64,000 nt of DNA. Origin: Heptranchias perlo (taxonomy: Eukaryota). The DNA lies in contig NC_090369.1 in the NCBI RefSeq assembly GCF_035084215.1, forward strand, positions 1,736,001 through 1,800,000, in the 5' to 3' direction. The notes beneath the pieces were generated by a model that worked only from the letters and a program-made list of their open reading frames with translations, was not told the DNA's origin and did no database searches. Shown in pieces: positions 31,771 through 63,305 of the stretch (position 1 is the stretch's first letter; each line of letters begins with the position of its first letter). A program made the translations under genes and the position numbers.

Positions 31771-31804
31771 ATGGGTGGGAACAATCAAACCCAGAGCTGT
31801 TACG
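31771..31804 (+). CDS. SIT1: SIT1-like exon 1 (MGGNNQTQSCY)
   Basis: GCAATGG Kozak context, donor G|GTAAGA in phase 1, NQT sequon and a Cys. Confidence 0.65.
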
Positions 31805-61800: not shown

Positions 61801-63305
61801 GTCCCCGGGGAGTGTGTCAGTGTTTACAGGGGGTCCCTGGGAGTGTGTCAGTATTTACAGGGGGTCCCTGGGAGTGTGTCAGTATTTACAGGGGGTCCCC
61901 GGGGAGTGTGTCAGTATTTACAGGGGGTCCCCGGGGAGTGTGTCAGTGTTTACAGGGGGTCCCCGGGGAGTGTGTCAGTATTTACAGGGGGTCCCCGGGA
62001 GTGTGTCAGTATTTACAGGGGGTCCCCGGGAGTGTGTCAGTATTTACACGGGGTCCCCGGGGAGTGTGTCAGTATTTACAGGGGGTCCCCGGGGAGTGTG
62101 TCAGTATTTACAGGGGGTCCCCGGGAGTGTGTCAGTATTTACAGGGGGTCCCCGGGGAGTGTGTCAGTATTTACAGGGAGTCCCCGGGGAGTGTGTCAGT
62201 ATTTACAGGGGGTCCCCGGGGAGTGTGTCAGTATTTACAGGGGGTCCCCGGGGAGTGTGTCAGTGTTTACAGGGGGTCCCCGGGGAGTGTGTCAGTATTT
62301 ACAGGGGGTCCCCGGGAGTGTGTTAGTGTTTGCAGGGGGTCCCTGGGAGTGTGTCAGTATTTACAGGGGGTCCCCGGGGAGTGTGTCAGTGTTTACAGGG
62401 GGTCTCCGGGGAGTGTGTCAGTATTTACAGGGGGTCCCCGGGGAGTGTGTCAGTATTTACAGGGGGTCCCCGGGGAGTGTGTCAGTATTTACAGGGGGTC
62501 CCCGGGGAGTGTGTCAGTATTTACAGGGGGTCCCCCGGGAGTGTGTCAGTGTTTACAGGGGGTCCCCGGGGAGTGTGTCAGTATTTACAGGGGGTCCCCG
62601 GGGAGTGTGTCAGTATCTACAGGGGGTCCCCGGGGAGTGTGTCAGTATCTACAGGGGGTCCCCGGGGAGTGTGTCAGTATTTACAGGGGGTCCCCGGGGG
62701 GTGTGTCGGTATTTACAGGGGGTCCCTGGGGAGTGTGTCAGTATTTACAGGGGGTCCCCGGGGAGTGTGTCAGTATTTACAGGGGGTCCCCGGGGAGTGT
62801 GTCAGTGTTTACAGGGGGTCCCGGGGAGTGTGTCAGTATTTACAGGGGGTCCCCGGGGAGTGTGTCAGTATTTACAGGGGGTCCCCGGGGAGTGTGTCAG
62901 TATTTACAGGGGGTCCCCGGGGAGTGTGTCAGTGTTTATCGTGTTATTATTTATTCAGAACCCTTTTCTCACTCTCTCTGTTTTTTGTAGGCCGTCACTC
63001 GGAGACCAATCTGCTACGCTAAGCTGGAGCTCCCTGCGTCCCGCGACCACTGTGGCAGGAAGTTCAGCAAGACGCAATATTCCGAGGTCTTGAACATGTT
63101 CAAGATCAACATTGAGAAGAAGGGGAAGCTGGGAACGGCAGAGACCCAGGAGGACGGCTCCCTGAGGAAGACCTCGCCCGAATCCCTGGACGGTCAAAGT
63201 GTTGACCTGGAGCACTCGGAACTCTACGCCTCGGTCCGTTTGGCGAGACGAGGGGACAAGTTGCCGAGCGAGGAGTACGCCAACAAAGAAAGCCTTAAAA
63301 TCTAA
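31771..63305 (+). CDS. SIT1: SIT1-like (signaling threshold regulating) lymphocyte transmembrane adaptor, 6 exons, about 205 aa
   Basis: Exons 31771-31804, 32876-32992, 34126-34162, 36774-36835, 57525-57577 and 62991-63305 splice in frame (phases 1,1,2,1,0; 618 nt). Tyrosine motifs in SIT1 order: PVYGNI, ICYAKL, TQYSEV, ELYASV, EYANK (human SIT1, as recalled: PLYGNL, MCYTSL, VKYSEV, ELYASV, AYANS). Confidence 0.85.
31910..32570 (-). mobile_element. Fragment of the second non-LTR family with an internal 79-bp triplication
   Basis: RAGQRLGILRRVTHLLTPQSLST...MEYSPLAWMSAA...IQDKAARLIG is an RT C-terminal signature. Confidence 0.88.
32876..32992 (+). CDS. SIT1: SIT1-like exon 2, transmembrane segment
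   Basis: Acceptor TGTAG|, donor G|GTAACT. GFEDLCCSSFMWVICGATGFLLFLSLSCNILCCARSYRK resembles TRAT1 GCPFFLWGLLALLGLALVISLIFNI and SIT1 LWVLLGAVTLLFLISL. Confidence 0.85.
33185..33400 (+). mobile_element. Internally deleted SINE
   Basis: tRNA-like head joined directly to the CATTGCTGTTTGTGGGATCTTGCTGTGCGC tail. Confidence 0.65.
34126..34162 (+). CDS. SIT1: SIT1-like exon 3 (DNSSKFLPRFRRS)
   Basis: Strong pyrimidine tract + CCAG|, donor AG|GTAAAG. Supplies the phase 1 to phase 2 bridge that the flanking exons require. Confidence 0.7.
34605..35197 (-). mobile_element. 3' end of the second non-LTR family, well preserved
   Basis: ORF 34576-35181: IYKAQVRSVMEYSPLAW...SKSWNSLP...[13 protein letters not shown]. 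Confidence 0.9.
35770..36595. repeat. 56/57-bp G-rich minisatellite, about 14 copies
   Basis: Unit GGGAGATTAAATGGGTGGGGAGAGTCTGTGATGGGGAGAGTGTACAGGGGGTGTGG(G). Confidence 0.96.
36774..36835 (+). CDS. SIT1: SIT1-like exon 4 (FKSKEVEDNPVYGNINYLYT)
   Basis: Matches SIT1 EEVPLYGNLHYLQTG and TRAT1 EDTPIYGNL. Donor G|GTGAGC. An alternative in-frame acceptor gives a start at 36768. Confidence 0.85.
37168..38090. repeat. CA-rich compound micro/minisatellite
   Basis: (CA)n-GCCAGTA, GCCTGTA and TCCTATA variants. Confidence 0.95.
38128..57400. repeat. About 19.3-kb satellite of 14-bp and 10-bp units in SIT1-like intron 4
   Basis: GTCCATCACT followed by GTCC, ACCC, GACC, GACT, GCCC or nothing. Confidence 0.98.
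57525..57577 (+). CDS. SIT1: SIT1-like exon 5 (GMERRSSGQPVEPETGVK)
   Basis: Acceptor TCTCTTCAG|, donor AAG|GTTGGT. Supplies the required phase 1 to phase 0 bridge. Little sequence homology. Confidence 0.6.
58410..58970. mobile_element. SINE tail (minus, about 58410-58545) next to a full-length-like Deu-domain SINE (plus, about 58556-58970)
   Basis: TAGCTCAGTTGG A-box and GGTTCGAGCCC B-box, then CAGTACTGAGGGAGCGCTGCACTGTCGGAGGTGCCG...GATGAGATGTTAAACCGAGGCCC. Confidence 0.8.
59680..61380 (+). repeat. 63/67-bp satellite array, about 26 copies
   Basis: Same unit as 23993-27820. Confidence 0.97.
61400..62940. repeat. 31/32-bp minisatellite, about 48 copies
   Basis: Unit GTGTCAGTATTTACAGGGGGTCCCCGGGGAGT. 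Ends about 50 nt before the last SIT1-like acceptor. Confidence 0.97.
62991..63305 (+). CDS. SIT1: SIT1-like terminal exon with four tyrosine motifs
   Basis: Acceptor TTTTTTGTAG|. AVTRRPICYAKL...TQYSEV...ELYASV...EEYANKESLKI*. Confidence 0.9.
   Translation, partial: AVTRRPICYAKLELPASRDHCGRKFSKTQYSEVLNMFKINIEKKGKLGTAETQEDGSLRKTSPESLDGQSVDLEHSELYASVRLARRGDKLPSEEYANKESLKI

Follow-up and report, generated by a model that had tools for sequence, protein, structure and literature searches.

Which gene lies directly downstream of the W-type MHC genes of Heptranchias perlo, and does its position beside them reflect a shared function or only a shared address? The window analyzed here (the whole 64,000-nucleotide stretch of contig NC_090369.1) carries a W-type MHC alpha chain gene (WA), for which a preliminary description made from the letters alone had proposed a SIT1-like adaptor as the downstream neighbor on the same strand. 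The reading that we favor, with a probability of roughly 0.8, is that this neighbor is a six-exon shark orthologue of SIT1, a one-pass adaptor predicted to become tyrosine-phosphorylated after antigen-receptor triggering and likely to damp signaling, which lies beside the W cluster, likely by way of an old shared block of genes and not through joint function.

The proposed chain of six exons with fitting phases over 31.5 kb holds: six GT-AG exons with mutually compatible phases occupy positions 31771-63305 of the + strand, a span of 31,535 bases. The features of the gene are as follows.

31400..31770, + strand: 5' untranslated part of SIT1 exon 1, from the X1 contig, in which 186 further, unplaced letters lie upstream
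31771..31804, + strand: coding part of exon 1, with the start, the N-glycosylation sequon N5 and Cys10; phase 1; joined to exon 2 in X1, X7 and X3
32876..32992, + strand: exon 2, with Cys17/18, the transmembrane segment (about residues 24-42) and juxtamembrane cysteines; phase 1
34126..34162, + strand: exon 3, phase 2, encoding a basic juxtamembrane stretch in 37 nt; X1 and X3 show depth in the bin that contains it; conserved in homologues
36768..36835, + strand: exon 4, phase 1, encoding the YGNI motif; a further possible acceptor lies at 36773/36774; part of the 158-letter middle piece in two contigs
38129..57400, no strand: satellite with a 14-base unit, 19.3 kb, filling most of the 20.7-kb intron 4
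57525..57577, + strand: exon 5, 53-nt spacer; phase 0; its 3' end is the loose end before exon 6 in X1, X3 and X6
62991..63305, + strand: coding part of exon 6, with YAKL, YSEV (T at -2), YASV, YANK and the stop
63306..64000, + strand: 3' untranslated region, continuing beyond the window end; the X1 contig reaches 64000 at its position 1876 of 1964

With exon 4 read from the upstream acceptor, the coding sequence comprises 624 nt and encodes 207 amino acids. Two AG acceptors, six bases apart, precede exon 4, and the second (exon 4 from 36774) yields the 618 nt that had been given originally. We rejected the 618-nt form as the main one: both spliced contigs require 158 letters in the middle of the transcript, not 152, and the RefSeq protein likewise uses the first AG. 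The 207-residue product is letter-for-letter identical to RefSeq XP_067832284.1 ('signaling threshold-regulating transmembrane adapter 1-like [Heptranchias perlo]'). Hence the gene, which had been described as hidden, was indeed missed by the open reading frame scan, but was already present in RefSeq. The scan misses it because four of the exons are only 34-68 nt long and most of the span is tandem repeat (24,482 of the 31,535 bases, chiefly the intron-4 satellite). Exons 4 and 6 each have a single match in the H. perlo genome.

The joining of the exons is supported by spliced contigs from two studies, both of which fit the six-exon chain. None of the runs is recorded as RNA; we took them to be RNA and read them as assembled contigs. 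In X1, one contig of 1,964 letters covers window positions 31400-31803 from its position 187 with zero differences, removes intron 1 at GT..AG, and places window position 32990 at its position 706 and 62989 at 865. Exactly 158 letters thus separate exon 2 from exon 6, which equals 37+68+53 (exon 3, the long form of exon 4, and exon 5), and the 30 letters immediately ahead of exon 6 correspond to the last part of exon 5. The X3 run, from another organism and another study, has the same joint between exons 1 and 2, the same 158 letters and the same loose exon-5 end. Smaller pieces come from X6 (the exon-5 end before exon 6), X7 (the joint between exons 1 and 2 only) and X2 (parts of exon 6 only). 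The joints 2-3, 3-4 and 4-5 are supported by the length of the piece and not by a directly listed joint.

The predicted protein consists of an outer stub of about 20 residues with the sequon N5 and cysteines 10, 17 and 18, followed by a single membrane segment (hydropathy peak at about 24-42) and a tail that contains no enzyme domain, the sole Pfam match being SIT. The five SIT1-type tyrosine motifs noticed at the outset are present in the tail in the order YGNI, YAKL, YSEV, YASV, YANK, matching the human series YGNL, YTSL, YSEV, YASV, YANS, and the extracellular stub of human SIT carries N26 and C27 (both from the accessible part of PMC2193021). When the cytoplasmic tail was shuffled, at least two of the five motif patterns, which were drawn from the homologue alignments, appeared in 155 of 200,000 trials. 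By our own patterns, all five motifs occur in order in 104 of 130 homologue records, and eight other full-length elasmobranch homologues align end to end at 52-74%. Two or more juxtamembrane cysteines, predicted to be palmitoylation sites, are found in 65 of the 67 scorable homologues, most of which are from fish.

An alternative identity is TRAT1. Comparison of the protein sequences indicates that the window gene is the shark orthologue of SIT1 and is distinct from TRAT1, as had been proposed. In a tree of 29 rows the window protein falls into the SIT1 clade as opposed to the TRAT1 clade with support 100/98, and a tree of 20 rows recovers the same split with 100/100 (the clade test in the latter touched the root only, 74/62). 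Both trees were built from chosen rows; the SIT1 clade comprises the window protein and sequences from rays, ray-finned fish, lungfish, caecilian, reptiles, platypus and meerkat, the TRAT1 clade includes chimaera and stingray TRAT1, and within the SIT1 clade the gene tree follows the species tree. A profile of tetrapod SIT1 scores the window protein at 119.9 bits, compared with 56.0 bits for the TRAT1 profile. The mammal-only SIT1 profile gives 41.1 bits, below TRAT1, and in pairwise comparison chimaera TRAT1 (42.5) ranks above meerkat SIT1 (34.4); we read these low scores as a probable sign of fast change in mammalian SIT1. A ten-protein bony-vertebrate profile that contains no shark row yielded 80 representatives and scored two shark proteins at 113 and 104 bits, mammalian SIT1 at no more than 75 bits and TRAT1 at no more than 67 bits.

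In the reciprocal search suggested for the gene, on the genome side, chimaera TRAT1 matches a different H. perlo contig (C11, E 1.7e-28) from that of the window (C48), such that TRAT1 is a separate gene. Caecilian SIT1 has one match in the genome, a weak one (E 0.086) to exon 2 of the window, whereas a query with turtle SIT1 missed the locus and retrieved no relevant match, in an exon-by-exon search too insensitive to prove a single copy. An equally insensitive exon-by-exon search of the H. perlo genome with PF15330 retrieved only an unrelated membrane exon (E 9.7). Against the window protein, the Pfam SIT family (PF15330) scores 22.5 bits (E 1.7e-4), under its cut-off of 27.6, as do named SIT1 proteins of turtle and alligator. 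A protein search with H. perlo SIT1 gave 13 matches; among the best 120 of the 182 matches of a profile search, the named ones are mostly SIT1, SIT1-like or uncharacterized. The whole protein matches SIT-family clusters of the Atlas at 0.93-0.95, with a SIT1-named cluster first and TRAT1 third; exon 6 alone has no Pfam match and no Atlas match above 0.78. One perch protein that is named TRAT1 falls within the SIT1 clade.

That the gene could be a paralogue within the SIT1/TRAT1 family, as opposed to a true SIT1 orthologue, appears highly improbable. Apart from the low score of the mammal-only profile, this possibility draws on the neighbors of human SIT1, which we take to lie at 9p13 with GBA2, a talin and the RNase MRP RNA gene in its vicinity. 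The shark gene does not share them: in H. perlo, GBA2 and a talin are on contig C1 and the RNase MRP RNA gene is on C4. The comparison covered these three markers and left out CD72, TESK1 and CCDC107. The 200 kb surrounding the gene for RNase MRP RNA yielded no SIT-like exon (best E 0.13) with the bony-vertebrate profile, which detects three of the SIT1 exons in the window (E 1e-11 to 5e-7). This locus says little about 9p13, because its flanking genes look like what are presumably WWC2 and ING2. A paralogue is hard to reconcile with a gene tree that tracks the species tree within one SIT1 clade, with the ordered presence of all five motifs and with the separate TRAT1 gene; in addition, no second copy was found in the H. 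perlo genome by the searches described above, insensitive as they are. We therefore return to SIT1 orthology.

The window's W-type genes have the class II exon plan and form a head-to-head alpha/beta pair.

13022..13106, + strand: WA leader exon, in-frame model
18914..19165, + strand: WA alpha1 exon
21529..21807, + strand: WA alpha2 exon, C1-set, with Y8, F57 and W61; Nds3L type by eye
23082..23206, + strand: WA connecting peptide and transmembrane exon
28420..28446, + strand: candidate last WA coding exon, predicted by phase; AATAAA/ATTAAA sites follow at 29262, 29328 and 29419
5158..5433, - strand, edges by eye: WB beta1 exon; Pfam MHC_II_beta 23.6 bits, over the cut-off
3097..3378, - strand, edges by eye: WB beta2 exon, C1-set, with P57 and G61
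8975..9065, - strand: candidate WB leader exon, putatively in head-to-head orientation to WA, at a distance of about 4 kb; the sole candidate in 5500-13000 under our filter

On the basis of these exons, the gene upstream of SIT1 is identified as a W-type MHC alpha chain. From the end of its membrane exon (23206) to the SIT1 start codon there are 8,565 bases, both genes being on the + strand, in agreement with the distance of under 9 kb initially reported. By eye, the WA alpha2 domain has W61, Y8 and F57, together with F where the W-category pattern (W61, Y8, L55, F/Y57) has L at position 55, as in white shark Nds3L (the part of Dataset S2 of PMC8713811 available for comparison), and WB beta2 has P57 and G61 in place of W61. 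The best PDB matches of the WA alpha2 exon are to beta2-microglobulin. The 464 kb examined around the window contain four WA/WB pairs (C48:1.655-1.759 Mb), and the best four genome-wide matches of the WA alpha2 exon are the WA genes of these pairs.

In H. perlo the gene order is a Shal channel, an MBOAT protein, EBP, a WD40 protein, an FTSJ1-type methyltransferase, the W cluster, SIT1, TSR2, WNK3 and a FAM120-like gene. We take the Shal channel, MBOAT, WD40 and last genes to be KCND1, PORCN, WDR13 and FAM120, respectively, and assume that the block corresponds to human Xp11.2. The linkage of SIT1 to W genes, of which the preliminary description knew no earlier account, is already known from a published figure: Supplemental Figure 3c of a 2023 paper (PMC10751288) draws WNK3, TSR2, SIT1, FTSJ1 and WDR13 around six W genes on sawfish Chr43 (3,864,382 bp). 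In the accessible portions of that paper SIT1 is nowhere mentioned in the main text, and the maps of white shark and catshark omit it. A sawfish SIT1-like homologue (P0006) among our matches lies on a contig of 3,864,382 bp, the length of Chr43 in the figure, and has an accession number intermediate between those of two W entries printed there. For white shark, SIT1 exons 1-2 are fused with a WB beta1-like domain and membrane segment in the RefSeq model XP_041035582.1, whose number falls between the W accessions ...580 and ...583; its contig measures 9,475,417 and Chr35 is printed in the figure as 9,144,357, so the white shark linkage is indirect. Seen in sawfish and, given the fused model, very probably present in white shark, the linkage occurs in other chondrichthyans and is probably ancestral to sharks and rays. 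No chimaera SIT1 was found among the named homologue matches. Literature searches yielded nothing on SIT1 with MHC synteny in sharks, on SIT1/TRAT1 adaptor evolution in teleosts or on single-cell work on SIT1 in cartilaginous-fish T cells, and queries joining SIT1 with WNK3/TSR2/GABBR1/PPP1R11 returned unrelated matches only.

SIT1 had also been suggested as a synteny anchor for the history of the W genes, a role that the comparison does not bear out. According to the accessible parts of PMC10751288, some W genes of lungfish accompany FTSJ1, WDR13 and PORCN on chr8, and others belong to the MHC on chr9. Lungfish SIT1 maps to chr9 (1,379.5 Mb), flanked by GABBR1 and PPP1R11/GTF2H4; a distance of 546 Mb separates it from the W pair linked to the MHC, and the drawing of the W locus on chr8 does not include it. 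The axolotl W genes map to chr 1p, outside the MHC, and SIT1 is not mentioned in the accessible text and supplement of the axolotl MHC paper (PMC12619710). The neighbors of SIT1 thus differ among shark, lungfish and mammals, with the gene apparently in three different neighborhoods and moved at least twice, whereas the W loci of shark and lungfish share WDR13, FTSJ1 and PORCN; therefore, it is these housekeeping genes that serve as the anchor for W history. The W genes would have entered the WDR13/FTSJ1/PORCN block before the split of sharks and bony fish, because lungfish also has W genes in that block. In the common ancestor of sharks and rays SIT1 would have stood next to W; lungfish and mammals have it at other sites.

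The arrangement could have other causes than a passively shared neighborhood, which we keep as the default reading. A single duplicated segment might have carried both SIT1 and W out of the ancestral MHC, followed by reciprocal loss, a scenario that we consider very unlikely. It would account for the presence of lungfish SIT1 on the same chromosome as the MHC, flanked by GABBR1 and PPP1R11/GTF2H4, and for the dual location of the lungfish W genes. However, in the available gene lists of white shark and reedfish, GABBR1, GTF2H4 and PPP1R11 sit compactly within 5-6 rows, with no gene named SIT1 there, such that in lungfish SIT1 seems to have been inserted at this site later, and it is far from the W pair. 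A different proposal, raised in the preliminary description, is that SIT1 and the W cluster constitute a selected, co-regulated lymphocyte module held together by shared regulatory elements. Both a shark and a ray retain the adjacency, as does, very probably, white shark; the two genes share a strand, with the candidate 3' end of WA presumably about 2 kb away from where the SIT1 transcript begins; and both are immune genes amid housekeeping genes. Nevertheless, conservation extends over the entire block and takes in the housekeeping genes, and therefore the SIT1-W adjacency needs no special cause; moreover, the lungfish arrangement described above separates the two, and Nds3L WA, the type next to SIT1 in H. 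perlo, is on an unplaced scaffold in the portion of the white shark figure available. We regard such a module as unlikely.

A bolder version of this idea starts from the third tyrosine motif. At position -2 of this motif, threonine is found in all 11 full-length shark and ray proteins, H. perlo included. Eight of these have Val/Ile at +3, yielding TxYxxV/I, and the other three have Thr. The motif could be placed in 100 of the remaining 113 records; the residue at -2 is Ile in 94 of them and Thr in one, and three reptiles have Ile. The residue is also Ile in lungfish, caecilian, tuatara and four placental-type records, Leu in platypus, and Val in human (PMC2193021, accessible part). In the shark and ray proteins the motif therefore departs from the canonical ITIM, which has I/V/L/S at -2; the H. 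perlo protein retains the tyrosine and positions +1 to +3. As given in the accessible part of PMC2193462, TxYxxV/I is the proposed SH2D1A (SAP) consensus and I/V/L/SxYxxL/V is the ITIM. Judged from the letters, the shark and ray motif may recruit a different signaling partner; the threonine may be a new detail. That shark and ray SIT1 was rewired, its ITIM having turned into a SLAM-type switch motif at which SAP/EAT-2 compete with SHP2, and that the gene is retained and regulated jointly with the W cluster as one lymphocyte module, strikes us as quite unlikely. Being related, the 11 proteins represent a single event, and the three species that break the consensus at +3 argue against strong selection for SAP binding.

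Setting this switch aside, the signaling role envisaged for shark SIT1 under the favored reading follows that of human SIT, for which the accessible parts of PMC2193021 and PMC8666445 report phosphorylation by Src-family kinases, binding of Grb2 via the YxN motifs and of SHP2 via the third motif, and Csk-mediated inhibition, the latter being independent of the third motif (PMC2193021). Because of this independence, we treat Thr at -2 as a variant and not as grounds for exclusion from SIT1. By analogy, the shark stub would be N-glycosylated at N5 and the protein would form disulfide-linked dimers via C10 or C17/18. Src-family kinases would phosphorylate the tail, the two YxN motifs would bind Grb2, the third motif would bind SHP2, and Csk recruited to the protein would mediate inhibition of the receptor output.

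Thus, an automatic SIT1 annotation is confirmed by splice evidence and phylogeny, an arrangement drawn for one ray is extended to sharks and accordingly dated, probably, to the shark-ray ancestor, and SIT1 and TRAT1 are shown to have been separate genes already in cartilaginous fish. Co-expression of SIT1 and W, if true, would matter since W function is open, and a real change of partner from SHP2 to SAP through Thr at -2 would raise the importance of the gene further; a rewired module, if it existed, would indicate in which cells and through which pathway the W molecules, of unknown function, operate.

Among known systems, the shark protein most resembles human SIT1, the SHP2-interacting transmembrane adaptor, in its short stub with an N-sequon and cysteine, single transmembrane segment and identically ordered set of five tyrosine motifs, of which two are YxN. 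It differs from the latter in the absence of a hydrophobic leader ahead of the stub, the juxtamembrane cysteines with predicted palmitoylation, Thr in place of Val/Ile at -2 of the SHP2 motif, and the genomic neighbors. TRAT1 (TRIM) belongs to the same Pfam family and has YGN and CY-x-x-L motifs in common with SIT1, but forms its own clade, is a separate gene in H. perlo and, by eye, lacks YSEV, YASV and the terminal YxN. The third motif of the H. perlo protein, T-x-Y-x-x-V, is like the TxYxxV/I motif of the SLAM family (2B4, NTB-A; PMC2193462, accessible part), from which it differs in being a single copy, known here by its letters, in an adaptor that is not itself a receptor, and in the Thr at +3 of three of the 11 elasmobranch proteins. 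Finally, the locus as a whole conforms to the elasmobranch W locus as published (accessible parts of PMC10751288, Supplemental Figure 3, and PMC8713811), with multicopy, head-to-head WA/WB genes between WDR13-FTSJ1 and TSR2-WNK3 and SIT1 drawn there for sawfish, and is distinguished by the presence of four pairs in H. perlo.

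The W-type MHC genes beside SIT1 form four head-to-head WA/WB pairs whose alpha chains, typed by eye, are DS5-like in two pairs, DS10-like in one and Nds3L-like in one. The candidate last WA exon, with its poly(A) signals, lies about 2 kb upstream of the SIT1 transcript start, and read-through from WA towards SIT1 is possible. The decayed LINE fragments (reverse transcriptase-type) in the window are ordinary.

C48 (the contig of the window), 1655000-1760000: four WA/WB pairs
C48, 1575900-1578200 (L037, L038): solute transporter-like gene, between the Shal channel and MBOAT genes
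Window 186-1508, minus strand: LINE fragment
Window 14330-16920, plus strand: LINE fragment
Window 28420-29425: putative final WA exon, with poly(A) signals
Window 31920-32600 and 34600-35220, minus strand: LINE fragments
Window 36762-36774: tandem acceptors of SIT1 exon 4, six bases apart
Window 38129-57400: 14-base-unit satellite (19.3 kb) inside SIT1 intron 4

All long ORFs within the satellite are repeat artefacts. The sawfish SIT1 protein lacks the two residues corresponding to the gap between the exon 4 acceptors and, judging from this sequence, may therefore use the second one.

The white shark homologue P0013 (RefSeq XP_041035582.1) is a gene model in which SIT1 exons 1-2 are fused to a stretch matching sequence that lies behind WB beta2 exons, to a WB beta1-like domain and to a membrane segment. 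Because SIT1 is whole in the basking shark, this fusion probably reflects either an error of annotation or a rearrangement of the locus.

We take the transporter-like gene to be organic solute transporter alpha-like. The following loci lie on other contigs of this genome:

C11, 53708883-53727096 (L047, L048): TRAT1 orthologue
C4, 21725539-21725809 (L059): RNase MRP RNA gene

The latter is flanked by genes resembling WWC2 and ING2 and does not sit in a 9p13-like block.

At the end of the SIT1 membrane segment, a juxtamembrane cysteine cluster (window 32950-32975), predicted to be palmitoylated, is shared by most of the fish and reptile homologues; the mammalian sequences examined lack it. Sequence comparison indicates that the third tyrosine motif (window 63069-63091) is of the TxYxxV/I type in place of an ITIM, with Thr at -2 in every shark and ray SIT1 examined. 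The first motif of lungfish SIT1 is YDNI, and the PMC10751288 supplement places that gene on the MHC chromosome (chr9, 1,379.5 Mb), flanked by GABBR1 and PPP1R11/GTF2H4.
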